This document shows, one piece after another, positions 3,097-60,484 of a stretch of DNA of 60,484 nucleotides. A program made the position numbers and the translations under genes. The stretch's first letter is position 1. The number at the start of each line of letters is the position of its first letter. The notes beneath the pieces are model-generated. The model was not told the origin of the DNA, searched no databases, and worked only from the letters and a program-made list of their open reading frames with translations. The stretch is from a virus (Duplodnaviria; Caudoviricetes), in the IMG/VR virus record IMGVR_UViG_3300009120_000002, positions 1 through 60,484 of that record, one strand, 5' to 3'.

Positions 3097-4688
3097 TATA
3101 AAAGCTCCCGTATCCTAACGTCGTGGGGGATGAGGTGAAAACTCAGATCAATGTACATACCTTGCCCTTCATAGTCATTTGAAGTGTCCCTGTACACATC
3201 ATTGATAAAAGTGGAGAGACCTTCCATGTTGTCCACAAGACACCAATCTTCGGTGCGGTGGGTAACTGAACATTTTACAACATTAGTCTCTGTATATTCA
3301 AGTTCCTCGTCAAGATCAATGCGAACGAACAACAGTTGTGTTCGTGTCGCTGTTACAGCCGTGATATTGACTGCACCGCTCCATATAAAACATCCATTAG
3401 CATTGCCTCTAGCGTATGAAGCCCCTTCGATGGTGTAATGATCTTGTTCAATTGTAGTTTTGTAATGGTAATTCGCACCATATCTAGCCTCTTTTACAGT
3501 GTGGGTCGTTGATATAAATTTATCTGCGTCATCAACCTGATCAAGGTTCTCTAGATCTTCGAGTACAAAGAGCATTACTGTCTCTGTTTCCACAGTGTCA
3601 GAATTTGGATATGTGACCGGATCAGTTTTATAATCCACTGAAGTATTCTCATACCTTCTGAAGGTTATAAAATACAGAACTGAGTCATCATCATAGTAGC
3701 ATTTGTGACTCCATTGATAATACGGATCATCATCGTTGTCATACTCCAAATAGACTCTCGACCAGATGTTGTAGTGATGCAGCGCGTACCCTGTTCTGAC
3801 CCACGTTGGAGAATCATACCCTGGATCAACCACTAAGCTCTGTTCGCGTCTTGCATAGATCGCGCCAAGGTTGCACTCGACCCAAGTTGACCCTATAGAA
3901 AATGGGTATTGCGGGTTGCTTCTGTAAAAATAATAATTTGTTGGTGAATCAGTCTCCCCAGCCTCCCCATACGATGTAGAATCAAATTCGCAACCAATGT
4001 TATGCCATGCGGTGCGTATCGGTGTAGCTGTCTGGAACTGAAACCCTCGCTGCAAGAACGGTTGAACCGTATCTAGGGAGTCTGCAAAAACAACACGTCG
4101 AGCCTCAATGACTGGAGTTGATGGGTCTTGATCAATATAGGTAGGGACCAATGGTACTGTGTCAGTACCTATATCATACAGGGAATACTCCGTTACAGAG
4201 TATGAACCATTGTGTATCTTTAAGAGGGCATAGAGCCTCCAAGTGCGAGGAGCATGTTCTTTAGAATCGTTGAAGTTATAGAGTGCCGATGATAGAACGT
4301 GAAAAACAAAAAGAGGAAGACCTTCACCGTCAAACAGGGCCAGGGCTTTAGGTGTAAGCGTGGTTCCCATTGATGTTGATATCCCACCGGCCATGGGAAA
4401 GAGTCCAGCAGCGTACTCAAAATAGGAGGCCGCCTGCTCGGCATCCTCTTCAATCATACTCCGCTCACGGCACCCTACATCGGTGTGGATGTAGACCGGG
4501 ACATTCTCATACTCCACATCATCTAAAGAGATGATCACTGCAGTGGCGCTGGACAGTCCGACAACCTCAACCTCTTTCACGCAGGCCGTTTTCAGCACCT
4601 CGGCGCCTATTTCAACGGTGGCAAGATAAGGGTAATACTCTGACCCTTCAACCGAGTTCGGTGGAGTGTTCGGCTTAATGATCGCCAT
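3096..4688 (-). CDS. Hypothetical virion protein with AT-richer, Tyr/Thr/Asp-rich C-terminal region
   Basis: 530-aa ORF with GAGG SD; base composition visibly shifts below about 4300. Confidence 0.6.
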   Translation of the reverse strand: MAIIKPNTPPNSVEGSEYYPYLATVEIGAEVLKTACVKEVEVVGLSSATAVIISLDDVEYENVPVYIHTDVGCRERSMIEEDAEQAASYFEYAAGLFPMAGGISTSMGTTLTPKALALFDGEGLPLFVFHVLSSALYNFNDSKEHAPRTWRLYALLKIHNGSYSVTEYSLYDIGTDTVPLVPTYIDQDPSTPVIEARRVVFADSLDTVQPFLQRGFQFQTATPIRTAWHNIGCEFDSTSYGEAGETDSPTNYYFYRSNPQYPFSIGSTWVECNLGAIYARREQSLVVDPGYDSPTWVRTGYALHHYNIWSRVYLEYDNDDDPYYQWSHKCYYDDDSVLYFITFRRYENTSVDYKTDPVTYPNSDTVETETVMLFVLEDLENLDQVDDADKFISTTHTVKEARYGANYHYKTTIEQDHYTIEGASYARGNANGCFIWSGAVNITAVTATRTQLLFVRIDLDEELEYTETNVVKCSVTHRTEDWCLVDNMEGLSTFINDVYRDTSNDYEGQGMYIDLSFHLIPHDVRIRELL

Positions 4689-26662: not shown

Positions 26663-26934
26663 GTTGTTTTTCCTGGCGCCGGAGGAACGATATTTTGTTC
26701 TTCGGCTGTACCGATCTCAAGTTTTGGCCTGTCCGGTGCCTGTATAAAGTCGATATGTGGTGTCGTCCCAATCAGCTTGGCGTACTCGATCTCCATTTTT
26801 ACGGTCGTGAGGATCTTTCCGGTCGCGTTGACGATCGCGTTCACATTTGCAGCGGTGGTTTTTCCAGAGCGGATCTTCTCGATCTCTTCTGCCAAAATAA
26901 CACGTAGGTCGTTCACAGTTTTGATTGCTTCCAT
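26659..26934 (-). CDS. Hypothetical helical protein
   Basis: 91 aa, GGAG SD. Confidence 0.65.
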   Translation of the reverse strand: MEAIKTVNDLRVILAEEIEKIRSGKTTAANVNAIVNATGKILTTVKMEIEYAKLIGTTPHIDFIQAPDRPKLEIGTAEEQNIVPPAPGKTT

Positions 26935-27431
26935 TTATTAATCTCCCTTTTTATTTGCAGAATTAATCGTTTAACCTCTATAAGTTCAGGAGGTATGTTT
27001 TTACTGTTTCCCCCCATTGTGTATGCAACATACCAAGTGGACAAATTGTCTCTATAAGCCTGCGCTCGTTCTAGTATTCGATCTTTATTCCTTTCCTTGG
27101 CAGCTCTTTCCTTAGCTCGCGACGAAAAAACATCTGTCCCCCTGGCCTCGCGTCTTTTTTTATTTATGTGTTCAGCGTTTTTTCTTTTATAGTCCAGACG
27201 TTTCTCCCTGTGTTTCTCGCGGTCTTTTTCAATGAGAAGACGATTTTTCAAGTTTATTGCATCTCTGTTGTTCTTTCTGTATATCCGTCTTGATTCTAAA
27301 ACTTCTTCTTTGTGGTTACAGACATACTTGCGTTTACTTTCCGCATGACACATTTTGCAACGTCCATATGGTAAGTAAAAAGATTCAGCTCCAAATATAA
27401 AATGGCCATTTTTACAGAGCGGAAGGCCCAT
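26913..27431 (-). CDS. Basic Zn-finger/helical protein (paralog A)
   Basis: CKNGH and CKMC; Lys/Arg-rich helix; ELIEVKRLILQIKR tail; AT-rich. Confidence 0.65.
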   Translation of the reverse strand: MGLPLCKNGHFIFGAESFYLPYGRCKMCHAESKRKYVCNHKEEVLESRRIYRKNNRDAINLKNRLLIEKDREKHREKRLDYKRKNAEHINKKRREARGTDVFSSRAKERAAKERNKDRILERAQAYRDNLSTWYVAYTMGGNSKNIPPELIEVKRLILQIKREINKWKQSKL

Positions 27432-47350: not shown

Positions 47351-49318
47351 TTAAATGTTTGCGAATCTCCCGATATTGCGCAACTCCTCCTTGGTCGCGG
47401 GGAGATATGCACCACCTTTCGTTTGCGACTGCGCCTTGATGCGCCCTTGGTATGACCTGCGCAAAGTGTCACTGGTGATACCGAACAGCGGTTGTTTCTG
47501 GTTGAACTCTGTGATGTTCTCCATCGCCTCCTGTGCGGTTTTGGCGTCGTCTTTCCTGGTCGCCTGCACCCACCGGTTGATCAGCAGTTGTCTCCTATCA
47601 TTGATTCTGCGCTCATGGTTCTTGATCGCATTGGCTCCAGAGTACATCTCAGAGATGTTGGCAGGGGTGAACCCGAGTGCCTGGCCAAACAGCTCCATGG
47701 CGCCAAGGTTGTCAATCAAGGTGTCCTCTTGCCAGTTCTTGACGCCCTCCTGAGAGTACCTAACGGACTTCATGGCGTCTTTGATGAACTTAGGGAGCAT
47801 CATTTCCATGCCGCGCCACACCTGGCCATCGGCCATGGTTCCAGCACCGATGAAGATATTCGAGGCGTTGGTGGCAACCGGACCGAGCACCAGGTTGACG
47901 TACTGATTCCACTTGTCGCGGCCCTCGGCCTCGCGCTCAGGCGCCCTGAGCCACAGGTCACCCAATGAAACCCTGCTCGACAGATCGAGGGATCCAAGGC
48001 CAGGGATCATGCGCCACGGTCCGCTCGCTATCGCCTCGCTTGCGGTCTTGCCCACGGTGTCAGTGAGCAGATTGCGGAGCGACACCTCCAGGTCTTTTGG
48101 ATCATCATCGTCTCCAAATGCTGAAAAGAGGAACTGGACAACGGCCATAATGCCACCAAGCACCGGCATGCCCTGCATACCTGCCAAGAGGAAATGGCCG
48201 CCAAGGATCATGGCGAGCCTTTTCTTGGCCATGGCCTTGACCTCGGGTGATTCACCCTTGGCGGCCAGGTAGAACGACCGGCCCAACAACCACGTCATTT
48301 GCTGCGAATACTGCTTGAACAGCAAGAGCACCCGCTTGACATTGCCCTCCATCCACCTGGCGCGGTTGGCCTGGGTATAGTCGAAGTGCGACTCGAGCAC
48401 GATCTCCCTGGTCTCGTTGATCGCATCCTGGTGGCTCATGCCGTTTTTGATCGCCAGCCGGTACGCGGCCAGTGCGGTGACTTTCCGGTTGGCCAGCTCG
48501 GCGATATGGAACGGATACGACACCAGGCGCATGGCTCGCATGGCCGCATGTCCGTGCTTGGTTCGTGCCATGTTGAAGAAGTCGTTGCCGGCCGCCTGGG
48601 CCAGCGAGTGAGCTGCGGTCACGTCGATGGTCCCGTCGTCGATCAAGGCCTGGATCATGTCGCGTTCGGCCTGGGGCAGCTTTTTGTTGTTCACCAGGTC
48701 TGGCCCGTGCGCCAAGGTCGCCTTCGAGGTGAAGTAGTCGGCGCTGGCCGTCTTCAGCACGTTCATGGCGCTGATCGCTCCGGTCTGCTTGAACCGTGTG
48801 GCCAGGATAGGGAAGGCCACTAGAGGGGTCTGGCTTATGTTGACCAGGGCGCTGGCGATACTCGGTCCGATGTTCCAGACGAAACCTCCAGCAGTGAGCG
48901 CCTGGGAAATCGGGGAAATGTCAGGGTTGTTGAGGATCTTCAAGCGTGCGTTTAGCTCGTTGTACAGGTCGGTGATCTTGTCGCCTTCCTGGTCCTTGCC
49001 CATCATCTTCGATTCCTGCAGGATAGACTGCACGGCGGTTTCCAGCTTGTCGGCGTGCCGGATCCTGGCGATATGGTGCGCCGCGTGCTGCATGTTGTCG
49101 GCAAACGCCCGCATCTGGTCGCGGCTGTAGCCCTCAACCTTCTCGCGGTGTACAAAATGCTTGCGGTGCGAAAGGTCGGGCAGCGCCTTGATGAAGTGCT
49201 GGTTGATCTGGTCCTTCAGCTCTTCGAGTTGCTTCCCTGGAAGCCCGTTGGTTTTGTCCAGGATCTCGAAGATACCTTCGGTTGTCGACGTAGAGCTTCT
49301 TGACGGACTGGTACACAT
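47351..49318 (-). CDS. C-terminal module of the giant protein (PLxRFG/LPD-type region), out of frame with the upstream part
   Basis: LPDLSHRKHFVHR..GYS.D..RAF, SALVN.SQ, E.ANR..T.LAAY and HFDY...NR motifs typical of polyvalent-protein C-termini; N-terminus does not look natural. Confidence 0.65.
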   Translation of the reverse strand: MCTSPSRSSTSTTEGIFEILDKTNGLPGKQLEELKDQINQHFIKALPDLSHRKHFVHREKVEGYSRDQMRAFADNMQHAAHHIARIRHADKLETAVQSILQESKMMGKDQEGDKITDLYNELNARLKILNNPDISPISQALTAGGFVWNIGPSIASALVNISQTPLVAFPILATRFKQTGAISAMNVLKTASADYFTSKATLAHGPDLVNNKKLPQAERDMIQALIDDGTIDVTAAHSLAQAAGNDFFNMARTKHGHAAMRAMRLVSYPFHIAELANRKVTALAAYRLAIKNGMSHQDAINETREIVLESHFDYTQANRARWMEGNVKRVLLLFKQYSQQMTWLLGRSFYLAAKGESPEVKAMAKKRLAMILGGHFLLAGMQGMPVLGGIMAVVQFLFSAFGDDDDPKDLEVSLRNLLTDTVGKTASEAIASGPWRMIPGLGSLDLSSRVSLGDLWLRAPEREAEGRDKWNQYVNLVLGPVATNASNIFIGAGTMADGQVWRGMEMMLPKFIKDAMKSVRYSQEGVKNWQEDTLIDNLGAMELFGQALGFTPANISEMYSGANAIKNHERRINDRRQLLINRWVQATRKDDAKTAQEAMENITEFNQKQPLFGITSDTLRRSYQGRIKAQSQTKGGAYLPATKEELRNIGRFANI

Positions 49319-52300
49319 CTTTGGCCTCTTTGCTGAGAGCCCGGTATTTCGGAGCCAGTTCGTTGTAGTCGCGGAAACGCTTCACCTCTTTCTCGATCCG
49401 CTCGGTCGCCCTGGTGATGGACTGTTCCAGTCTGGCTTTTTCGGCGGTGAGCTTCTCGATATTACCTGCGCCTTTCATTTCCTCATTGATCTCGGCTATC
49501 CTGGCCAGGTTGTCATCGATGCGTTTGCGCAACGCCTTTGAATTGGCCCTTGGCTCGAACTGATCCAGATCGGGGTTGACCTCGCCAATGGTGGCCTTGA
49601 TCATCAACTCCGACATATCCTTTGCAGCTTTTTTCGAGAGCCCTGCCCACTGGTTGTACACCTCGTCAGCCTTGGTCATGATGCGCTTGGAGTCGGCGTC
49701 TTGTGCCCTGGTGGCCTGGTAGAACATCTCCATCTGCGGCAGGTCTCCGGCGAACACGTCACGCAACTGGCGCAAGGTGAGCGCCCCGAGGGTCTTCCTC
49801 TGGACTGCAGGGATAAGCGACTTGAACCAGTCGGCCGCCTTGGTGCGGAGGGCAACGTCGTCAACGTCAACGGTGTCATCGCCCTCTTTGGCCATGGCCT
49901 TGAAGTATTCCTGTTCGGCTGCAGCGGAATAGCCGCCTTCGGTGATCGCTTCGATAGCTGCGGCACGTTCCGGGCCAACAACATCGGCCAAGGGACTGCG
50001 AGAATACCGAACATCAGGGTTTGACCTGGAGAACTCACCGGTGTTGTCGAGTGCGCTCTTCACCTGGTTGGGATCAAAGACAACGACATGGCCACGGTCA
50101 ACAATGATAATACCGTCGTGTCCATTCAACTCTTCCATCCGCTTCCTGAACGCTTTGGCGCCGGCAGCGTTCGCCACCTTCTTCTCAAGCGCTGACGATT
50201 CAATGACAAGCGGGTTTTCGAGCCTGACATAGAATGGGTGGACCGTGCCCTCTGTTCCTCCTGAGTGCGCGGTGGCAATGGTCTCGCTACCGAGGAAGAT
50301 GCCCAGCCCAGCGAGTGCAGAGCTGTCGCCACGATGCTCTTTTGTCTGGTCGAATATCCACGGTGTTTCGTTGGACTGTAAGAAGTGAGGGTCTTTTGTC
50401 CCGTGGAACAGGACAAGAGGAACGCCATTCTTGGTGATCTTGGATTTTCCGAACCAACGCTTGAAAGCTGCGGTTGCGGTTTGGGGAATGGCGCGACTGA
50501 ACATGGGCTCTCCTGTCTCGTCTGTCCACTGCGCCATGGTCCCGTCTTTCTTCGGCTGCGTGGCGACGATGACGTTCCCTCGTCTGGTCACATTGCCAAA
50601 ATACTGAGAGACCTCGTCCATATACCATTCAGCTTTCTGGTGATTTTGCCACGAGACAGCCTCGCCGTTCTTGACCTTGGTGACACGGCTATTGCCGTCG
50701 CCGTCGCCCTCGTGGATCTGGAAGTAAGCCGTGCCGTCCTGCTTGATCGCCTTTGCAGCCTGCCTGATGACGAGGGCGCGTATATCTTTCTCCTGTATCA
50801 CGTTCAGCACGTTGTTGGCAGTGGCCGTGTCTGTTCGCGCCGCAGAAAGCTGCCTGACAATCTCGTCGTTGTGGCGCTTGTCACGATTGAACGGGTCAAA
50901 TAAGAGGTTCTCGACCCCAATGCTTTTCAGGTAGTCAGTCCCGATGTCGAATTTACCCCCTCCGATATCGACATTGACAGTTCCTTGCTTGAGCCACCCC
51001 TTTTTGAAGGTAGCTGCAATCTGTGGCAAAGATGTTGCTGCAGAGCTGATAGCCTGCACCATCCTGGAGAACTGAATGCGCGGGTCGGTGCTGGAGAACT
51101 CTCCGGTGTTGGAGACGGCGCTCTTGATCTGGGTCGGTGAGAGCGCTATGTAGGCATCGTCCTCAACAAGAGGATATTTTTTCAGGTAGTTTATCGCATC
51201 GGTTTTTGCTGCGTCAGGTGTTGCCCCGTACCCCCACGAGTACCCCTGGAACCAGGCGATGTATTTCTTGCTATCACCTGCGCCTTTGCCATAGGCCTCG
51301 TTAAACGTGACCGTTATATCCGGAACCTCTCCGTCCTTTAATGGGCGCTGCCCCTCGTACCTGTTTCTATAGACAACCCCGTCGTACCCCGCTTTTCTTA
51401 GAGCGTCGGTGATGATGGCAACAGCGTTTCTGAGTGGTCTTGTCGCAGCTATTCTCCTCGCTAATACGGGTTCTATGATTCCTTTCTTGCGGAGTTCTTC
51501 TGCAACCCTATGGACTGCATTGCCTCCACGACCAAAAACATCGTCGAGCCTTATCGGATTTTTTATTGATAAGTATGCAGGCATGACACTTCCACCGTTC
51601 TTCCTGGCAAAATAATTAGCCTGGGTTTCAGTGCCGAAATGGAAGCCGACGTCTGGGCGTTGTTTGCGCGGCTCGAATACATCAAAGAATGCGGCTGTCC
51701 CGTGGAATACCCGCAATGGCTTGCCATCCTTGTCCACCACCTTGCTGTCGCCGAACCACCTCTTGAACTCGGAGCTGTTCACGTCAACTGGCTTGAAGTT
51801 CACGGCCTCGCGCACTGACAGCATGGCACTCTGGATAGCGTTGCCACCGGTAGCGGCGTTCACGGCTGCCCTGGCGAATATAACTAGGTCTTTTTGGCTC
51901 AACGTATCGGGTGAGGATAGGCCGGCCTTGATCAACCACTTCTTGAAGAATGCCTTGATCCGGTCAACGATGGACAGCTCGGTGTTGGCGTTCTGTTCGA
52001 TCAGGTAGGCGGCAACCTCGCTCCAGTAGTGCTCCGGTTTGGTGCTGGCCGGCACCTTGGCCATGGCTGCCCGGATGGCGTCACCGGTAGCGCCCTTCGC
52101 ATCCTTCCGTCGCTCCAGGCTCTTGAGGATGGATTGATAGTCGGCATCTTTCGAGAAACCGAGCTGGTTGGCATGCTCGCCCAGCTCGTGCAGGAGAACC
52201 GGGAACGCCTGTCCTTTGGCGATACCGTCGCGGACAAGGTAGGAAACCCCGTTCACATAGGCGCCCTGAATAGCGCCGCCTTGGGAGTGTTTGACGGCAG

Positions 52301-55300
52301 GGTTTTCGGCCCCGTCAATGATCCCCTGCATCTCCTTTTGGCTGTCAACGATTACCACCTTTCCGGAGTTGAGCAGGCGCCTGGACCGGACACCACCGAG
52401 AGAGGAACGAAGCTCGCCCTCGATGTCGGCGCGTTCGCTGGCCTTTACCGCTGTGGGTGATTCGGAACGCCTTGACCCTTGTGTTGGCGCCTGGTTAGCC
52501 TCGTCTCTTAGTCTCCTGGCTATGGCGTGGGAATCGTCAACGTACCATGTCATCCCTCTACGGTCGAACAGGTTGAAAACGGCCCTGATATCATCAAGCG
52601 ACAGGGCATTCGTGCCCATCAACCCGGACCTTGACGTGAAACTTCCGGTAATAGCAAGAAGCTCCCTGTCGTCCCTGAAAAACCTGCCGGCCCGGCTGGC
52701 TGCAGCCTGGGTGACAATGCGATAGGTGTCGTTGCTCGCGGTGTGATAGATGCGAAGCTCTCCAGGTTGCCGCAGGTAGACTGCTGAGTTTCCAACCTCC
52801 TGCATGTACCTTATCGCAATTTCAGCGGTCGGGATGGTTACCGGGGATTCATTGATAGCTACGCCAGGATCGAAATTGTCAGGCATGAGGACGCCCTGGT
52901 GGATAACACCATCGGCCCTTGTAAAATTCACAATTTGACCATTTGACGCCTGGAATGTGCTGTAACCAGTGAACAGGTTGCCGGTTATCATCCATCTGTT
53001 TTCGCGGCTCACTGATCGTAACGTGTCGAACAGGTTAACGATGGTGTCAAAATCGTTGTGCGTTATTGTGACAGATACGGCCCCGCTGGTGTTGGCACCA
53101 AGTGGTGGGATGTGATATTGAGAAAACGGCCTAGAAAGCACGCGGATACTGTCGGCAACAGCCACCTTTGCTCTCCACGAAGAGAGTGCCAGCGGGTTCA
53201 CAGGGTTTCCCCTCTTCAACAGGTCGATAACTACACCTGGGATCTGGCTCAACGAAGGAACCCCGATATTCATGTCAACTTCGACAGTGTTCCCAACCGT
53301 GAAATATCGGATGAAGTTGTTGAAGGCTCTGAGGTTTGACCTCAACTCGTCCCGTTTGTCTTCAAGCCTTGCCTGGGCAGCCGCTCTTGATTGGTCACTG
53401 GTGGCCTCGTCGATCTGCTTTTGTATTTTTGAAAGCACATCGGCTGCGTATGCCTCGAAATCTCCCCGTGCGGCCTCTGCCTCATCAAGGCCGTGGCCCT
53501 CGTTCTCTTTGACCATCTCCCTTACCTGTTCGCTGGAAAAAGGATGGCCGATTCTTTTCATATCGATGTATTCAGCCTTTACTTCTCCCTGGAAAACACT
53601 GTCTCCAGATTTTGGGATTACAATTTGCTCCTCAAGCGTTCTGGCCTCAAGGTTCAGGGTCTTTGCCTCAAGGTCGTTTCTTCCTATCGAATCAAGCTCG
53701 GCAATGTACTCGTTGTAATTCTCTGTCAGTATTTCGTATATCTGCTCCTGCTGGTCGCGTTTCAACAGTGGTATCCTGCCGGTCAGTTTCTTTATAACCC
53801 CGTCAAGGTTTCCGGTCTGCGGGTCGTATGGAAAACCAAGGGCAGCGTTCAGAGCCGGGTTTTCTATCATGGCCCTGGCGGCCACCCGGTCGCCATACTT
53901 GTTCATAAAATCGACAGTTGATTTATCACTGAACAGCGATTCCTTGTCGGCTGTGGTGTTTGCGTTCAGGCCTGCCATTTTTCCGACAAGAACCGCCGCC
54001 CCCTTCCTTTCGGCTGGGATATTGGCAACGGCCTGGAGATATGCAGGCGCTATCACCTGGCCGGTCCTGTGGACGCGGCCAAGCATCTGCATGTGGACGT
54101 TGATGTCGGGCTCGGCCTGGACGATTATCATTGTCCGTTTGCCCTGGCCCTGGATCGGGTTTCTCTCGCTCGCGTGAAGGGATATTCCGGTCGATCCTGA
54201 CCGGTTCAAGATAATGGCCCGGTTTTTCCCTTGGTTGAATTTTTTTATCGTCTCGGTTCTTCCGTTCACGCTGCGAAGTTTTTCTGGCCTGAAGGCTAGT
54301 TTTGGAACCTTCCCGGAATAGTCGATCCGGTACGATCTTCCCGTTATTTCAAGGGGAGGGAATCCAGCCTTCTCCAGCTCGTTGATCATGTAATCAACAG
54401 GGGAAAGGGGAACCTCAGAGAGGTCCATTGCCTGGATCATTTTCGACACCCGCTTGTAAGCCGCAACACCAGCAGGTCCGAGGTCGGAATCTGAAAGCCA
54501 ATACTGGATAAGATCCCCGTTGGCGTCCCTTGTTCCATCTGAATACAGTCGGGTCTTGTAAAGGTATCTCACCACCAGGTCGTTGAATCTTGCATCAATA
54601 ACGTCGCCTTCATTGAGCATTTCAGCCTTTGCATACTGCTCGATGAAAGATCCCATGGTGTTTGAAACGGTCAGGACAACCTGCTCATGTCTGTCTCCAT
54701 CCTTCGAGTCTCTGCTATCCTGCAGTATCCGGATAGCCCTATCAACTGAAGGTTTCACCTTTAACGAGAGGAGCATCTGGCCAATGATATTGTGCATCAG
54801 CGACGTGAAATTTTGAGACTGCTGGCCTATGACGCCAACCGCGCTCGAGCCCACACCGCCGGCGCCCTGGAGCGCAGGGACGACAAATTCATCCTCGAAC
54901 TGCCGGATAGCCGCCATCGATTCTGATATTTTGTCAGCCGCTTCCAGGTTCACCTCTACGAGCATGGGCGTGTACTCCACGCCCTCGAACGATCGCTCCC
55001 TCCGGATATACTGCCCGGCCTCTGCAAGCATCGATGCGGTTATCTGTTGGAAAGGGATGCCGCCCTGAGAAATCGCGCCGGCGAGCTGAGAGATATCTCC
55101 ACCGACACCAACTCTAAGATCGGTCGCTGAGTACAGGCTCATGACCTCGGGGTTTTTTGCGTATGTTGCAGAGGAATAAACAACACCGTTTGCCCGTTGA
55201 ATTATCTGCCTGAAGAACAACGCCCTCGGGTGAGGCACGATTCCGGTCCTTCTGTCGGGCGCCAGGTTGTTCATGTTTTCCGAACCGCCGGCATTGTGAG

Positions 55301-58300
55301 ACTCGTCCATTATCAGCATTGCTTGCCCACCATCGACAAGCTGTTGGATGAATCGTCTCCTTGGGGACATGGTGTCGGTCCCCTTCGGGTAAAACTGGTC
55401 GTTCAACTGGTCGTATGTTGTAAATACGATTTTTGCAGTTTTTCCGGTGGTTGTCTTCGGCATCCCTTCAACTGAACCTAGAGTTGCATTCCAGCTTGTT
55501 GGGGATTTGAGGGTTATGGTGTTTTTGCTGTTTTCTTCATCCTTGTACAGGATGACAGATTTTGAATTTGTCTGAATTATTTCCCCGACAACATCACCGC
55601 TTCCGATATCAACGAGGTCTCGGTACATATCGGCATAGAGTCCCTGCTTCTCCGTGCAGAACACAGGAATTTTTCCGTTCAAATAGGCGTACCGTATCAT
55701 TGCAGCCACGAATCGACCCTTGCCAATCCCGGTCTGGTCACCAATGATAAAGCCACTCCCGTTGTCCATGTTGTCGATGGCCAGGGCAATGGCGTCGATC
55801 TGTTCTGCCGAAAAAGCTGCGAACAGCTCATCGCTGTCTTTGTACTTCAGCCGTTGAAGCACAAAATTATCGACGCTTCCGTGCTTCTCGGCGAGAGCAT
55901 ACAGGGATTTCGCTATCGCCTGCGCCATGTTGATAGGAACGAGTGTTCCGATAGGCTCTGCTTGGCTTACGGGGTGGTAGTGGGTTTGGCCTTGAGATGC
56001 GACAACCTCCTTCTTCTCGGCGTCTTTCTTCTCTTGGGCCTGGACCTCTGCTGCAAACCTTGCGATATAAGGTTTTACCTTTGTCCCCCACCTGCTCATC
56101 ACTTCCATGATGAAATCACGAAGAGAGCGCCCTAGCTTCTTGGTGTTTTCCCAAGCAAGAATGAAGTGCGGTTTGGCCTTCGCATAGGTTTCCTCGTCGA
56201 ACGCCAATCCTGACCCGAGGCGGTTTGACCCGCCGAACAGTTCGTTTAAACCGTTGAACGCCTCGTTGATTGCATCCTGGGCGTTCTTGATTATGTCGTT
56301 ATCTGGAGGTGGTGGAGTTTTGTCACTCTTCTTGTCGCGTGGAGGTTTCCTGTCGCGTGGAGGTTTCTTGTCGCGTGGAGGTTTCTTGTCCTTCTGCTCT
56401 TCCTGCTCTGGTTGCTGTTTTGGTTCAGGTCTAAACACTCGCGGTGCAGACTTCCGTTTTCTAGTTTTCCATACCCTGCGGTCTGTAAGGTCGTTGTTCT
56501 TCCTGGTCGGAGAATTGGCGAGCCTGTCGCGCGGATTCTCATCCTGCGTCCCGGCTTCGTCAGGTTCCTGTTGTTGCTCCTGCTGGTCACCTTGCCGTTG
56601 TTGCTGTTGCTGTGGTTGCTTTGTACCTGAAATCTCGTCCGCGACCTCATCGATCATATTGAGGATGTCGTCGAGCGACATGTCAATGATTTCTTCTGCT
56701 GCGGTTTTTACTCCGGATTGTCCACCTGTTCCTCCAGGGCTTCCATCCAGTCGTAAATCGTCAGCTCTTCCAGGAGTTCTCTGGCCCCCTCGATCTCCTT
56801 GAGTTCCTCCCCCTTGTTCAGCCTGGGCACCGGCAAGTAGCTCTTCAGCTCCGAGAGGTCGTCCATCAACGCCAGGGATATTTCCCTGTTGCTCATTTCC
56901 GCCGTCACCCCGTCCGGGAGCAAGCCCATCCCCGCCAGCCTGTTGATCAGGTCGTCCTTGGCTTCCAGGTTCCCTTCCTGTTGTTCCCGGTTCAGGAGCA
57001 AGGTTATCGTTCCCGGTATCTGTGCTTCCAGGTTGAGCATCGGGGTTGGAAAACCGGAGCCCTCCTGGGGTGGCACGCGGACCACGGTTAGGATTTGCCG
57101 CGTCCTGCTCGCTCCTGGTTGCATCCACACCAAAAACGGTTGCCGTTCCTGTTTCGATTCCATTTAACTGTCCTCCTATTTCGTCAAAAGATGAATAGAT
57201 TGGAGGAGCCGCGAACGATGGGTGCGCCTTCTCGGACTGACCGCGACCATGGATAACGATTATGTCTATCGGCCATCCTGCGCCCTGCTTCGCATACAGT
57301 TCCCCCGCGACCGTAAAGTGATCAGTGACCTTGTAGTTATCATAAATATAAGTGAAAAATTTCCTTCTGCCACCTTTTTTATACTCATTTGCCCGATCTT
57401 CCGAACTTCTTACAAGTTTATTCAGCCCGCCGATGATAAGAACGGCACTTCCGTCGTCACGCATGATAGACAGAGCCTGTAGGGATATCGCCCGGTCTAT
57501 TGCGGTTGTCTTGAACCCGTCGATATTGAACAGTTGCTCTTTCCCTGAGTCGTCCCTTACTGTTCCGAATGGTGGGTTTGTAACGACGATATCCACAGGG
57601 TCGGTGTTCTTTACGTCGAGCGCGTTCCCTTGTCTCACCCCTGAAATGCCAAGGCTTTTAAGAAGAGCTACCCTTGTTTCATCAAGCTCGTTGGCCATGA
57701 CCGTGTCGAGGTTTGCCCCGATAAGCAGCATGCCGGTCCCAGCGGTTGGCTCATAAACGAGCTGGCTCCTTGATCCGTCGATACCGGCAAGAACATTGGC
57801 AAGGTATGCGATAGGAGCCGGTGTTGAGTATGCCTGGTTCCTTATAGAGTCAGATGTTCTGGTGGCAAGGCGAGGTTGCATCTCGTAAAGAGCAACGAGC
57901 TGGTTGAATATCTGCGAGAATGACTGCCCGGAGCTTCGACCTTGACGGACGATATCCCTCCCGATCTTGACAACTGCGCTCTCGATCCCTTCGTCTATCG
58001 CCTTTCTAAACTCACCCGATTGAGTGTCGATCCTGTCTCCGAACCTATCTGCGATCCGTTTCCTGGCAGACTCGATATTGTTGAAGTTCCACCCGCCGGC
58101 CTGGTAGAGGTTGTAGAAGTATTCAGAGAAAAACACCGTGGCGTCTGGCCACGATTTCCAATTAACCTTTGCTGTTGGGGTTTCAGGCTCGATCTTATCA
58201 ATCTCTTTTTCGCGCTCTTTCTCGAACCGTTCCTTGTCAGCTTTTGCTTGCTCTCTCTCTGCAATCTTCTTGTTGAACTGAGCGACCGCATTGTTGTACG

Positions 58301-60482
58301 CCTCGGTCTCGGTCATACCAAACCCGGAGACCGAAAGGAAAGGTCCGCTTTCAGTGATAATGACCGCCTTGTGCTTGTTTCTGAGGTGCTCTTGAAATTC
58401 ACTCTTGGGAACGATGTACGTCGAAAGGATGGCATTGTTTGGCATAGGGACAATGGGCATTATCTCCCTGGTCCCTATAATAGCCTCCCTGATGTTACCC
58501 TTGTCCACCACGACACCCCTGGTGTTTTCTATGGTGGCAAGATGCTTGTCGATGGCCTCGTCGGTGCTTTCGACCTCGCTTACCAGATCTCTCTGTCGAC
58601 CTGGCTCTGGAGCGAGCCTGTCTATTTCCGCTCTTATCCTTCTGATGACAGAGTTCTCGATTGCGGTTTGGTCAAGGCTAGGTTGGTTCTTCTTTTTTGC
58701 ACCCGTCAAGCTCTTGGCGTAGGCTATTGCTTCAGCCTCCTGGTCTGCTTCAAACTCTTTGACCCCAACGGTTTGCTCCGCGTCAGTGTCTCGCAGGACC
58801 ACGCGATATTTCCCTGTAACCTTGTCTTTGAATACCGTTGCTCCAGTGCCGTCTTCTTCGTCGGAAAAAGTGTCGACCTGTTCCAGATTTTCTGGGGTGT
58901 TTTCCTGGAACTGCTTGTCGCGCTCGGTTTCTGTTTTTCCTGGTTCATCCTTGAGCTGTTCAACTGCCCTGTCGTATGCAGCCTCCTCGGTGTCACCGTA
59001 CCCGTAAACAGGGAAAACGTCAGGGCTTCCAGGTTTCGTTATTGCTACTCGGTACTTCCCTTTACTCTTGTTGTAATCACCGACAGAATGAGACACATTG
59101 AAAACCAAACCATCTCTTCCTGGAACGGGGAAAGATGCCCCGTGGCCTGCTTTTCCGGTTGCGGGGTGTACTCCACCTTCACCACCTTCTCCGGCAATCA
59201 GTTTTTCAACGTCTCTAATATGCTTTTCAAGCCTATCATCAGTGACCGTCCCTTGGCTGTCCCGCTTCGCTTTCAGGTCAGCAAGCAGGCTTTTCAACTG
59301 CTCCGTGGTGTAATCATCATTCGCTTCTTGTGTCTCACCGGTGGCTGGTGAGCTGGCTTGTCGTTCTGCAATGAGCCTGTCAGCACGCTCGATGATCTTC
59401 TTGTTGACCTCGATCCTGTTCTCGGCCCAACTGCGTTCTATTGCAGAAAGTGGGCTCCCGCCCCTCTTCTCCCCACTATCCAGTTTCTTCTGTGACCGCT
59501 TGATTTCATCATTGAGCTGTTCAACAATGTTCTTGGTTGCCTCGGGTTTATCACCAAGGTAAGCGTTGTTTATCCTGTCAAGATCGTATGGTGAGAATTG
59601 GTATTCACCTTTCTCGTCGCGGTATCCTGCGTATGTTCCAAGATCGTTTTTTGTCCAATGGCTAGTCCCGGGTTTTTGTGTCCAACCGGTTGACGGCAAA
59701 TCGGTTTGTGTATCATCTGGGGCGAATGGTGATCCACTAACTTCTTCACCGGCCTTTACTTGGCCTGCTTTGGTTTGATCACCGTCAGCTCCCTGAACCT
59801 CATCTGCCGGCAGAGGACCGGAGACTTCCGGCGAGGCCGTTTCATCTAATGTGCGAAGAACTGCACCCCTTAGTTTTGCTCGAATATCTTTTTTTAACTC
59901 TGCCCTTTCTTCAGGTGTATCTGCAAGTTCAAGAAAGGCGGTGTATTTTTTTACAGCCTTCTTCTCTTCCTCGGTTACAGTTAGACGTAGCGTGTCAAAA
60001 CCCCCATACGACGCGACAACATTCCCATCTTGGTCCATGGAAATAATGGCATCTTTACCGTTGGCTATTCTCTCTCGTATTTTGGGTTTTACGCGTGTTT
60101 CTTCATTATGCTTGCGATTCCACTCGGCCTCTTCCAGCCTCTTTTGTTCCAACTCCTGTTCCGGTTGTGCTGCTGCAGTTTGTTCAATTCTTGCTCCACC
60201 GCCTCCGGTGTCAGCTTGTCCAGCGGGAAGTGTTCCATCTCCAACAGATCCTCCGTCAGGTTGTCCCTGTAAATCAACCGTGCCATCGACTCCTCCTTGT
60301 TCTGTTGCATCTTGCGCAACACCGGCGTCTGACTGTTGCGCCTGCTCGGTATTATCCGACGTTTCAGGGCCGGAAAGAGCCCGGGCGCCGGTCGCTTCCT
60401 GGTGTGCCTGGCGAAGCCTCGCCTGCTGGTTGGCCGTGAATGTCCAGTGCTCCAGGTCGGCGTCGGTGAACAGGTCGGGCCT
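49134..60482 (-). CDS. Giant DarB-like polyvalent virion protein (partial; open to the right edge)
   Basis: Frame open from 60482 (3783 codons). N6-MTase EPTAGTG/NPPFG (~57560-57760); Strawberry-notch-type SF2 ATPase GDQTGIGKGR, DESH, RSGSTGISLHA (~53600-55990); HELGEH (~52180); two FKRWFG...HGT...NP...DG...QIKS ART-like domains (~51070-51790, ~50000-50480); second MTase DIGGGKFD/NVLNVI between them. Confidence 0.85.
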   Translation of the reverse strand, partial: RPDLFTDADLEHWTFTANQQARLRQAHQEATGARALSGPETSDNTEQAQQSDAGVAQDATEQGGVDGTVDLQGQPDGGSVGDGTLPAGQADTGGGGARIEQTAAAQPEQELEQKRLEEAEWNRKHNEETRVKPKIRERIANGKDAIISMDQDGNVVASYGGFDTLRLTVTEEEKKAVKKYTAFLELADTPEERAELKKDIRAKLRGAVLRTLDETASPEVSGPLPADEVQGADGDQTKAGQVKAGEEVSGSPFAPDDTQTDLPSTGWTQKPGTSHWTKNDLGTYAGYRDEKGEYQFSPYDLDRINNAYLGDKPEATKNIVEQLNDEIKRSQKKLDSGEKRGGSPLSAIERSWAENRIEVNKKIIERADRLIAERQASSPATGETQEANDDYTTEQLKSLLADLKAKRDSQGTVTDDRLEKHIRDVEKLIAGEGGEGGVHPATGKAGHGASFPVPGRDGLVFNVSHSVGDYNKSKGKYRVAITKPGSPDVFPVYGYGDTEEAAYDRAVEQLKDEPGKTETERDKQFQENTPENLEQVDTFSDEEDGTGATVFKDKVTGKYRVVLRDTDAEQTVGVKEFEADQEAEAIAYAKSLTGAKKKNQPSLDQTAIENSVIRRIRAEIDRLAPEPGRQRDLVSEVESTDEAIDKHLATIENTRGVVVDKGNIREAIIGTREIMPIVPMPNNAILSTYIVPKSEFQEHLRNKHKAVIITESGPFLSVSGFGMTETEAYNNAVAQFNKKIAEREQAKADKERFEKEREKEIDKIEPETPTAKVNWKSWPDATVFFSEYFYNLYQAGGWNFNNIESARKRIADRFGDRIDTQSGEFRKAIDEGIESAVVKIGRDIVRQGRSSGQSFSQIFNQLVALYEMQPRLATRTSDSIRNQAYSTPAPIAYLANVLAGIDGSRSQLVYEPTAGTGMLLIGANLDTVMANELDETRVALLKSLGISGVRQGNALDVKNTDPVDIVVTNPPFGTVRDDSGKEQLFNIDGFKTTAIDRAISLQALSIMRDDGSAVLIIGGLNKLVRSSEDRANEYKKGGRRKFFTYIYDNYKVTDHFTVAGELYAKQGAGWPIDIIVIHGRGQSEKAHPSFAAPPIYSSFDEIGGQLNGIETGTATVFGVDATRSEQDAANPNRGPRATPGGLRFSNPDAQPGSTDTGNDNLAPEPGTTGREPGSQGRPDQQAGGDGLAPGRGDGGNEQQGNIPGVDGRPLGAEELLAGAQAEQGGGTQGDRGGQRTPGRADDLRLDGSPGGTGGQSGVKTAAEEIIDMSLDDILNMIDEVADEISGTKQPQQQQQRQGDQQEQQQEPDEAGTQDENPRDRLANSPTRKNNDLTDRRVWKTRKRKSAPRVFRPEPKQQPEQEEQKDKKPPRDKKPPRDRKPPRDKKSDKTPPPPDNDIIKNAQDAINEAFNGLNELFGGSNRLGSGLAFDEETYAKAKPHFILAWENTKKLGRSLRDFIMEVMSRWGTKVKPYIARFAAEVQAQEKKDAEKKEVVASQGQTHYHPVSQAEPIGTLVPINMAQAIAKSLYALAEKHGSVDNFVLQRLKYKDSDELFAAFSAEQIDAIALAIDNMDNGSGFIIGDQTGIGKGRFVAAMIRYAYLNGKIPVFCTEKQGLYADMYRDLVDIGSGDVVGEIIQTNSKSVILYKDEENSKNTITLKSPTSWNATLGSVEGMPKTTTGKTAKIVFTTYDQLNDQFYPKGTDTMSPRRRFIQQLVDGGQAMLIMDESHNAGGSENMNNLAPDRRTGIVPHPRALFFRQIIQRANGVVYSSATYAKNPEVMSLYSATDLRVGVGGDISQLAGAISQGGIPFQQITASMLAEAGQYIRRERSFEGVEYTPMLVEVNLEAADKISESMAAIRQFEDEFVVPALQGAGGVGSSAVGVIGQQSQNFTSLMHNIIGQMLLSLKVKPSVDRAIRILQDSRDSKDGDRHEQVVLTVSNTMGSFIEQYAKAEMLNEGDVIDARFNDLVVRYLYKTRLYSDGTRDANGDLIQYWLSDSDLGPAGVAAYKRVSKMIQAMDLSEVPLSPVDYMINELEKAGFPPLEITGRSYRIDYSGKVPKLAFRPEKLRSVNGRTETIKKFNQGKNRAIILNRSGSTGISLHASERNPIQGQGKRTMIIVQAEPDINVHMQMLGRVHRTGQVIAPAYLQAVANIPAERKGAAVLVGKMAGLNANTTADKESLFSDKSTVDFMNKYGDRVAARAMIENPALNAALGFPYDPQTGNLDGVIKKLTGRIPLLKRDQQEQIYEILTENYNEYIAELDSIGRNDLEAKTLNLEARTLEEQIVIPKSGDSVFQGEVKAEYIDMKRIGHPFSSEQVREMVKENEGHGLDEAEAARGDFEAYAADVLSKIQKQIDEATSDQSRAAAQARLEDKRDELRSNLRAFNNFIRYFTVGNTVEVDMNIGVPSLSQIPGVVIDLLKRGNPVNPLALSSWRAKVAVADSIRVLSRPFSQYHIPPLGANTSGAVSVTITHNDFDTIVNLFDTLRSVSRENRWMITGNLFTGYSTFQASNGQIVNFTRADGVIHQGVLMPDNFDPGVAINESPVTIPTAEIAIRYMQEVGNSAVYLRQPGELRIYHTASNDTYRIVTQAAASRAGRFFRDDRELLAITGSFTSRSGLMGTNALSLDDIRAVFNLFDRRGMTWYVDDSHAIARRLRDEANQAPTQGSRRSESPTAVKASERADIEGELRSSLGGVRSRRLLNSGKVVIVDSQKEMQGIIDGAENPAVKHSQGGAIQGAYVNGVSYLVRDGIAKGQAFPVLLHELGEHANQLGFSKDADYQSILKSLERRKDAKGATGDAIRAAMAKVPASTKPEHYWSEVAAYLIEQNANTELSIVDRIKAFFKKWLIKAGLSSPDTLSQKDLVIFARAAVNAATGGNAIQSAMLSVREAVNFKPVDVNSSEFKRWFGDSKVVDKDGKPLRVFHGTAAFFDVFEPRKQRPDVGFHFGTETQANYFARKNGGSVMPAYLSIKNPIRLDDVFGRGGNAVHRVAEELRKKGIIEPVLARRIAATRPLRNAVAIITDALRKAGYDGVVYRNRYEGQRPLKDGEVPDITVTFNEAYGKGAGDSKKYIAWFQGYSWGYGATPDAAKTDAINYLKKYPLVEDDAYIALSPTQIKSAVSNTGEFSSTDPRIQFSRMVQAISSAATSLPQIAATFKKGWLKQGTVNVDIGGGKFDIGTDYLKSIGVENLLFDPFNRDKRHNDEIVRQLSAARTDTATANNVLNVIQEKDIRALVIRQAAKAIKQDGTAYFQIHEGDGDGNSRVTKVKNGEAVSWQNHQKAEWYMDEVSQYFGNVTRRGNVIVATQPKKDGTMAQWTDETGEPMFSRAIPQTATAAFKRWFGKSKITKNGVPLVLFHGTKDPHFLQSNETPWIFDQTKEHRGDSSALAGLGIFLGSETIATAHSGGTEGTVHPFYVRLENPLVIESSALEKKVANAAGAKAFRKRMEELNGHDGIIIVDRGHVVVFDPNQVKSALDNTGEFSRSNPDVRYSRSPLADVVGPERAAAIEAITEGGYSAAAEQEYFKAMAKEGDDTVDVDDVALRTKAADWFKSLIPAVQRKTLGALTLRQLRDVFAGDLPQMEMFYQATRAQDADSKRIMTKADEVYNQWAGLSKKAAKDMSELMIKATIGEVNPDLDQFEPRANSKALRKRIDDNLARIAEINEEMKGAGNIEKLTAEKARLEQSITRATERIEKEVKRFRDYNELAPKYRALSKEAKDVYQSVKKLYVDNRRYLRDPGQNQRASREATRRAEGPDQPALHQGAARPFAPQAFCTPREG
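56332..56385. repeat. 18-bp tandem repeat x3 (KPPRDK)
   Basis: (T/C)TGTCGCGTGGAGGTTTC three times. Confidence 0.95.
56708..57163 (-). CDS. Nested +1-frame gene inside the giant gene (151 aa)
   Basis: AGGAGG-N8-ATG; globular-looking Leu/Glu-rich product while the host frame reads as a Gly/Arg/Asp/Pro linker. Confidence 0.65.
   Translation of the reverse strand: MESKQERQPFLVWMQPGASRTRQILTVVRVPPQEGSGFPTPMLNLEAQIPGTITLLLNREQQEGNLEAKDDLINRLAGMGLLPDGVTAEMSNREISLALMDDLSELKSYLPVPRLNKGEELKEIEGARELLEELTIYDWMEALEEQVDNPE
60089..60286 (-). CDS. Nested +1-frame gene inside the giant gene (65 aa)
   Basis: AAGGAGG-N5-ATG; MARLIYRDNLTEDLLEMEHFPLDKLTPEAVEQELNKL helix while the host frame is a Gly/Gln/Asp linker. 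Confidence 0.5.
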   Translation of the reverse strand: MARLIYRDNLTEDLLEMEHFPLDKLTPEAVEQELNKLQQHNRNRSWNKRGWKRPSGIASIMKKHA

Positions 60483-60484
60483 GC

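Follow-up and report, generated by a model that had tools for sequence, protein, structure and literature searches.

A gene-like +1-frame open reading frame in a DarB-like phage gene is probably a by-product of its linker, and related giant genes carry a conserved TnpV-like +1 frame

Does an open frame of 65 codons, headed by a Shine-Dalgarno (SD)-like site and an ATG and lying out of frame inside a much longer phage gene, mark a second gene? The question arises at positions 60089-60286 (minus strand) of a Caudoviricetes virus, IMG/VR record IMGVR_UViG_3300009120_000002; the window analyzed here is the whole record, a linear sequence of 60,484 bases estimated to be 87% complete. This open reading frame (ORF) lies within a gene for a DarB-like polyvalent protein (49134..>60482, minus strand; 3782 residues read), hereafter the host gene, whose 5' part is cut off where the contig ends. 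We consider it probable (roughly 70%) that ORF 60089-60286 is a by-product of the way the linker of the host protein is encoded, and not a selected gene.

On the minus strand, AAGGAGG (60298-60292) is followed by the spacer AGTCG (60291-60287) and by ATG (60286-60284), from which 65 sense codons run to a TAA stop at 60091-60089; the product, P0001, is MARLIYRDNLTEDLLEMEHFPLDKLTPEAVEQELNKLQQHNRNRSWNKRGWKRPSGIASIMKKHA. The SD-like motif falls in the host codons CAA GGA GGA (Gln-Gly-Gly), and the host residues across the ORF start are EQGGVDGTVDLQGQPDGG. By coordinates the ORF is in the +1 frame relative to the host gene ((60482-60286) mod 3 = 1), as is a second ORF of the same gene at 56708-57163 ((60482-57163) mod 3 = 1). 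These readings, taken afresh from the letters of the minus strand, agree with the original prediction, which had described an AAGGAGG-N5-ATG opening a 65-codon ORF in the same relative frame as ORF 56708-57163, had quoted the same host sequence over the start, and had placed the preceding domain outside the window, where the host gene is indeed still open at the contig end. The peptide also changes character along its length as had been described, with protein-like (acidic, helical) residues 1-40 and a tail unlike protein; the final 25 residues look like junk, and the host helix beneath them is protein-like. A single-sequence AlphaFold2 model of P0001 had a mean predicted local distance difference test (pLDDT) score of 60.9, with no residue at 90 or above and one helix (residues 27-45). 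The ORF thus combines an open frame with a start codon and a credible site for ribosome binding; the +1 frame is also open for 65 codons upstream of its ATG.

The composition of the host linker offers a common explanation for these features. A stop in the +1 frame needs a host codon NTA or NTG followed by a purine, and the +1 frame is open here because codons with T at position 2 are rare, making up 12-15% over host residues 1-130 vs 25-35% in the folded domains. In the mechanism that we propose, a hydrophilic linker rich in Gly, Asp, Glu, Gln and Ala, followed by a charged helix, would keep the +1 frame open through its few T-at-position-2 codons. Host codons that begin with G and end with A or T would, when shifted by one base, have A or T in the middle and G or C at the end, and could so yield the acidic, Leu-containing stretch of about 40 residues, while the purine-rich host helix EQKRLEEAEWNRKHNEE read in +1 would give the Lys/Arg/Asn/Ser tail. 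The start itself could arise in the same way, with Gly-Gly written as GGA GGA making AGGAGG and Asp-Gly written as GAT GGC making ATG. Tandem repeats, as a possible source of the GGA-rich linker, were not found in 59500-60484.

The codon composition under the ORF is likewise shared with its surroundings. The ORF lies in a block of low G+C content at third codon positions (GC3) that spans 59583..60368 (minus strand; host residues 39-300, 262 codons), with GC3 of 0.33-0.41 where about 0.60 is expected and with flanks at 0.84 and 0.575. Host GC3 was 0.407 over residues 39-65 (z -2.2), 0.333 over residues 66-131 beneath the ORF (z -4.6), 0.366 over residues 132-243 (z -5.1), and 0.368 over residues 244-300 (z -3.9), where the +1 frame is open and holds no listed ORF. 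The signal is common to 169 neighboring codons and begins 27 codons ahead of the ATG. It cannot be credited to ORF 60089-60286, because it also covers residues 132-243, a stretch of 112 codons where the host module is protein-like and 8 stops interrupt the +1 frame. A short Gly-rich linker further along the host protein (GEGGEGG..., 59070-59220, minus strand; residues 421-470) behaves similarly, with the +1 frame outscoring frame 0 despite containing stops, which indicates that linker composition alone can mimic a codon signal. Block 59583-60368 as a whole lies between conserved segments, residues 40-245 are without any homologue, and in sequence the block resembles a module that was acquired recently and differs in composition.

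The chance expectation for such an ORF was high enough to make a single case unremarkable. Length was uninformative, because the +1 frame of the giant gene contains 12 ORFs of at least 50 codons, and there are seven stop-free runs of at least 100 codons. The sense strand of the gene carries 17 GGAGG and 8 AGGAGG sites, with 10 of the 17 GGAGG sites on Gly-Gly, and the combination of an SD-like site, an ATG and at least 50 open +1 codons occurs twice, at 60286 and at 57163. The original prediction had proposed comparison with codon-shuffled controls, and the two ORFs did exceed 2000 gene-wide synonymous shuffles, which erase local codon usage: for AGGAGG-N4-10-ATG the shuffle mean was 0.143 against the observed 2 (P(>=1) 0.137, nominal P(>=2) 0.006), and for the GGAGG version the mean was 0.267 (P(>=1) 0.245, P(>=2) 0.021). 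This excess weakened when local codon usage was kept by shuffling in blocks of 60 or 120 codons (P(>=2) 0.04-0.15), in which a hit at the 60286 locus alone appeared in a fraction of 0.12-0.33; with 240-codon blocks that fraction was 0.03-0.06. In 23 further genes of the window, 26.9 kb in all, no SD-ATG-nested ORF was found vs 0.14 expected. As the pattern was defined only after being seen, the shuffle result is not significant for a single ORF; one such ORF is unremarkable and two are mildly unusual.

Codon quality gave a similar answer. When shuffling preserved the host protein and the local codons, the first 45 codons of ORF 60089-60286 stayed free of stops with a probability of 1.000, and their +1 codon score (0.334) was close to that of shuffles (0.316 +/- 0.039, P 0.32). 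Over the full ORF the score was 0.264 vs 0.174 +/- 0.058 (P 0.066), and P was 0.35 among stop-free shuffles, so that the codons are no better than the host protein and local usage would provide.

Searches for relatives returned little for the peptide or for the host segment. P0001 had no match in Pfam or PHROG, no candidate in a collection of 5.8 billion clusters, no usable match in an Atlas search, no exact copy in the protein collection, only hits of E >= 2 by tblastn against phages, and no relative in viral contigs. The only two phmmer matches among 1.84 billion representatives, P0004 and P0005, were rejected as repeat artefacts, being tandem-repeat proteins of 1202 and 1021 residues matched via 18 and 3 weak stretches, respectively. 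The host segment was similarly isolated: host residues 1-420 found one protein, P0003, which aligned only to residues 1-38 and 243-435 and lacks window residues 96-184; residues 40-245 found nothing among shorter proteins; and the segment found nothing by tblastn against phages or in viral contigs with the single protein as query. The sole part of residues 1-240 common to relatives is a conserved host motif (DLEHWTFTANQQARL...; 60369..60482, minus strand, GC3 0.84), and four related loci that carry its HWT(F/Y)TA signature (L002, L003, L004 and L005) matched host residues 1-63 only. Past this shared motif the +1 frame runs into stops in L002 and is an open Arg/Pro/Thr-rich run with no similarity to P0001 in L003. 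The nearest relatives diverge ahead of the 60286 ATG, and the four loci and P0003 are without the ORF. Because both the peptide and the host segment beneath it are orphans, conservation is neither shown nor properly refuted.

Near-identical DNA was found in no plasmid or phage, and genome contigs contained no relative. Eight wastewater sequencing runs contain parts of 56000-60484, with no RNA run listed among them; contigs of four of these (X1-X4) had almost no depth over 59724-60106. Among the variants listed, the only one near the ORF start was 60290 C>T, in the SD-ATG spacer, which changes a host Val to Ile. Contig joints that skip 59805-60193 and 57134-57252 were left unused, as their sides are short and may derive from other organisms.

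Several observations weigh against the by-product reading. The SD-like motif and spacing at 60286 resemble the starts of real genes in this phage, which use GGAG or GGAGG at similar spacing. The predicted unpaired probability at positions -18..+3 of this start was 0.60, toward the high end of the values for real starts (0.52 +/- 0.10, n=24) and attained by just 10% of internal out-of-frame ATGs (0.44 +/- 0.11, n=86). We also computed a contrast D, in which the mean log codon score in the host frame is subtracted from that in the alternative frame, for 156 alternative-frame ORFs of at least 60 codons in nine giant genes or parts of them; ORF 60089-60286 (taken from GTG 60322, 77 codons) had a D of -0.10 and ranked 12 of 156, with the ordinary ORF next below at -0.26. 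In a 40-codon frame scan of the giant gene, +1 beat frame 0 in 18 of 375 windows, and these started at host residues 51-71 (ORF 60089-60286), 421-431, 1131-1231 except 1181 (ORF 56708-57163), and 3721-3741 (a genuine frame change). GGA makes up 8 of the 11 Gly codons under the ORF, vs 1 of 9 over residues 132-243 and 96 of 322 gene-wide. To these can be added the nominal gene-wide excess of two ORFs given above, the existence of real +1 nested genes in DarB-like genes (described below), which raises the prior, and the little weight that missing homologues carry when the host segment is itself an orphan. By composition ORF 60089-60286 is intermediate, and its contrast rank is the main evidence against dismissing it. 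We discounted this rank because local-codon shuffles reproduce the score and because the GC3 dip spans a block four times the length of the ORF. The confirmed nested genes provide a scale: eight genes of the TnpV-like family described below occupied eight of the top nine places among the 156, with D of +0.13 to +1.09, a range outside which ORF 60089-60286 falls. The local-shuffle test of codon scores used above, once run on the same 156 ORFs, deserved little weight either way (family ranks 4-70, ORF 60089-60286 rank 85), as it proved anti-conservative and non-discriminating, with 34 of 156 reaching P <= 0.02; an apparent separation of the family and the 151-codon ORF 56708-57163 from ORF 60089-60286 in that test was dropped after the 156-ORF run.

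The observations above would fit a real small overlapping gene, with its own SD-like site and ATG and about 40 functional residues forming an acidic helix, whose product works or is packaged with the polyvalent protein. A strong SD-like site, an ATG and a predicted accessible site are what such a gene would need, and the rank of 12 of 156, the superiority of +1 over host residues 51-110 (where it is the best of the frames), the GGA enrichment, the precedent of nested genes in related giant genes and the rank (10 of 156) of the same-frame ORF 56708-57163 all point the same way. We nevertheless regard such a gene as unlikely, since P0001 has no homologue in any search and relatives lack the ORF, the host protein together with local codon usage accounts fully for the codon signal, low GC3 reaches far past the ORF, and the C-terminal third is junk-like with a low-confidence fold. 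The 65 open +1 codons before the ATG are also unlike the situation in six TnpV-like family genes and in the 151-codon ORF. Even so, because the start resembles real ribosome-binding sites of the phage and is predicted to be accessible, ribosomes may well initiate occasionally at 60286; the resulting peptide would probably be noise.

It is distinctly unlikely that the ORF is a relic, the functionless 5' end (SD-like site, ATG and some 40 codons) of an earlier gene, nested or neighboring, that a module swap cut off, so that the frame now runs on into unrelated host sequence as far as its first stop. Such a history would account for a good start without detectable constraint and for the abrupt switch in P0001, where 40 protein-like residues give way to a junk-like tail. 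The position is plausible too: in L003 an inorganic pyrophosphatase (InPase) module (about L003:4240-4650, residues 994-1131 of the L003 giant protein) lies just after HWTYTA where the window has an orphan module, which marks the position as a module-swap point, and P0003 is without window residues 96-184. The first 40 residues, however, have no homologue that would indicate a parent gene, and low GC3 starting 27 codons before the ATG fits a single block-level cause better.

That the SD-like site instead acts on the host frame, by pausing ribosomes, stimulating a frameshift or serving as an internal start in frame, with the ORF irrelevant, is very improbable: a perfect 7-base anti-SD match does lie inside a long mRNA, and SD-like sequences serve as frameshift stimulators in prfB and dnaX, but 60298-60260 lacks both a slippery heptamer (X XXY YYZ) and a stop-codon context, the 10 bases downstream contain none of ATG, GTG or TTG in frame (GTC GAT GGC ACG GTT GAT), no Rfam family matches 59500-60484, and the motif is not special among the 17 GGAGG sites of the gene, most of them on Gly-Gly.

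Judged from sequence features, the other +1 ORF (56708..57163, minus strand; 151 codons, product P0021) is a better nested-gene candidate than ORF 60089-60286. It starts at AGGAGG-N8-ATG, and a TAA in the +1 frame immediately precedes the ATG; its D was -0.02 (rank 10 of 156); and its host GC3 dip (0.355) coincides with the ORF, unlike the block-wide dip at ORF 60089-60286. The host frame across it is junk-like and composed of Gly, Arg, Asp and Pro, with GGA at 22 of 37 Gly codons. P0021 had no homologues in phages or viral contigs, and its exact sequence was absent from the protein collection.

Nested genes do exist in this kind of giant gene. The original prediction had proposed scanning DarB-like genes for in-gene GGAGG-ATG sites followed by open +1 codons; our scan of the relatives' giant genes for an SD-like site, an ATG and an open +1 frame gave one match, unrelated to P0001, in L003, where caGGAGGagccgacaATG at L003:5808 is followed by 104 codons. 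Its product, P0006, looks like a real protein, and the host frame over it is rich in Gly, Arg, Asp and Ala, with a host GC3 of 0.38 vs 0.76 for the whole gene. The exact sequence of P0006 occurs in a 28-member cluster called on short contigs. The gene belongs to a TnpV-like family of about 102-176 codons, which we found in these two metagenomic relatives (L003:5778-6122 and L002:5892-6200, the L002 copy being 67% identical to P0006) and in seven named phages. Counting in bases from the start of the annotated coding sequence (CDS), the family gene lies at an offset of 5002 in Erwinia phage Pavtok (NC_070921.1, 32014-32328), 4702 in Erwinia phage PEp14 (NC_016767.1, 31778-32092), 4531 in Klebsiella phage LASTA (NC_054965.1, 8719-9021, minus strand), 5107 in Ochrobactrum phage POI1126 (NC_070932.1, about 26779-27015), 5083 in Agrobacterium phage Atu_ph08 (NC_070876.1, 19549-19815), 2185 in Vibrio phage VvAW1 (NC_020488.1, 8523-8756, minus strand), and 5461 in Microcystis phage Mwe-JY07 (PP395639.1, 44889-45095). 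All seven offsets, taken from annotated coordinates, equal 1 modulo 3, which places the gene in the +1 frame in seven of nine annotated records; a script run on the whole gene confirmed six.

The two remaining records look like annotation or sequence problems. In PBC5 (L013, NC_003324.1) the TnpV-like match shares the frame of an annotated CDS whose end is the family stop, and the stretch downstream is unannotated; PBC5 may alternatively have a true fused form. In Itty13 (L009, NC_070969.1) the annotated CDSs over the TnpV-like region are on the opposite strand.

Several lines of sequence evidence argue that the TnpV-like region truly codes in two frames. Conservation of the family extends over eight host genera, with tblastn E values down to 1e-34 between genera; 11 members align with 13 invariant columns, 9 of the 11 begin MNL(N/Q)xW, and 5 of the 11 match the Pfam family TnpV (best E 1.8e-4). 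AlphaFold2 modeled P0006 as a helical bundle with a mean pLDDT of 78.3 and a core near 90, from a shallow alignment of near-identical sequences. Between Pavtok and PEp14, 10 of 105 host third positions differ inside the nested gene vs 44 of 150 just upstream, and nested-frame identity (0.86) is greater than host-frame identity (0.80). The family gene overlies a junk-like host linker rich in Gly, Arg, Asp and Ala, across which host-frame GC3 drops by 0.15-0.46. An SD-like motif precedes the ATG in the four loci read for one, and a +1 stop lies within 20 codons before the start in six family genes (L006 and L008-L012) and farther away in L014, L003 and L007. In LASTA, and likewise in L002 and L003, the nested gene is about 190 residues upstream of the methylase core. 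A fold search of the model against the PDB gave no match at E <= 0.001, and a PDB sequence profile search returned only designed helical proteins. Only the giant CDS is annotated over the nested gene in the records examined, the nested gene is unannotated in nine RefSeq records, and our literature search turned up no account of it; the region appears to be a case of dual coding not yet described.

Pavtok has another +1 ORF (L015:2510-2737, residues 837-912 of the Pavtok giant protein), which follows a GGAGG site and has a D of +0.35 (rank 6 of 156) and a host GC3 dip of 0.41. This ORF is kept only in three Erwinia phages, at 68-74% identity, and may be a second nested gene in Pavtok.

The giant gene of the window has no copy of the TnpV-like gene. 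A tblastn search with P0006 found nothing there, the family hidden Markov model gave a best E of 1.4 over all six frames of the window, and hhalign assigned probabilities of 0.06 to P0001 and 0.11 to P0021 against the family; nor does ORF 60089-60286 carry the H-W...P...AAE...G...EA motif of the family. The ORF and the family gene share the +1 frame, the kind of host gene, an underlying linker and an ATG start. ORF 60089-60286 sits elsewhere in the host protein and shows no sequence similarity, and the TnpV-like gene, unlike it, is conserved, matches a Pfam family, has a confident fold, suppresses host third-position variation and has a D of +0.13 to +1.09.

The suggestion that nested genes form part of the design of these giant genes was thus right in kind for the DarB-like family, through the TnpV-like gene, and is not demonstrated for ORF 60089-60286. 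Its more specific form, an enzymatic domain followed by a nested partner, did not hold: in relatives the roughly 850-920 residues upstream of HWT(F/Y)TA contain no Pfam domain, and the real nested gene precedes the methylase core by about 190 residues instead of following it. We consider it doubtful that ORF 60089-60286 is functional and, with ORF 56708-57163, one of at least two lineage-specific +1 linker genes that would form a further instance of a wider design. If this were true, DarB-like genes would carry small proteins in their own disordered linkers, with both products made from one late mRNA.

Known systems help to place these observations. Rz1 of phage lambda is wholly embedded in the +1 frame of Rz and is conserved, with a lipoprotein signal and a demonstrated function. 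ORF 60089-60286 resembles Rz1 in being short, in having a start codon of its own and in lying entirely within a longer gene in the +1 frame, and it shows nothing comparable to the conservation, signal or function of Rz1. Where coding sequence is hydrophilic or GNN-rich, ordinary ORFs in alternative frames share with ORF 60089-60286 the cause of the open frame and the origin of GGAGG from Gly-Gly; it goes beyond them in its perfect AAGGAGG-N5-ATG and in a +1 codon score that is unusually high.

The host gene has the architecture of a DarB-like polyvalent gene, with an adenine methylase, then a superfamily 2 (SF2) helicase, plus domains confined to polyvalent proteins. PHROG matches to DNA methyltransferases cover residues 878-1001, and Pfam domains include AAA_34/ResIII (1557-1845), Helicase_C_4 (2045-2206), two ART-PolyVal stretches and LPD39 (3558-3740); across residues 3336-3734 the protein is 70% identical to P0003. 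It thus shares the methylase-helicase dyad and LPD39 described for polyvalent proteins, including DarB of phage P1, in the excerpted text of Iyer et al. (2017, PMC5512222), where we found no mention of genes nested within polyvalent genes. Farther downstream, the stretch at 47351-49318 gives a match to the end of PHROG 10089 ('DarB-like antirestriction').

The giant gene is broken near 49281 (49134-49381, minus strand), where, compared with P0003, about 100 codons (P0003 4305-4409) are missing and the frame shifts. The homologous protein resumes in +1 as ORF 47351-49318 (74% identity to residues 4405-5053 of P0003), and the last 48 residues of the long ORF 49134..60482 are an out-of-frame tail. 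Loose ends at 49280 in contigs of runs X1 and X2 point to extra sequence there in relatives, and the break would represent either a deletion variant or an assembly fault.

ORF 60089-60286 shows how a Gly-rich linker with A-ending codons can imitate a gene, including its SD-like site. At the same time, testing the nested-gene idea on relatives exposed a conserved +1 small gene in DarB-like giant genes. If nested genes prove common, the annotation of giant phage genes would systematically miss proteins, and the 'disordered linkers' of polyvalent proteins would partly be the out-of-frame shadow of other genes.

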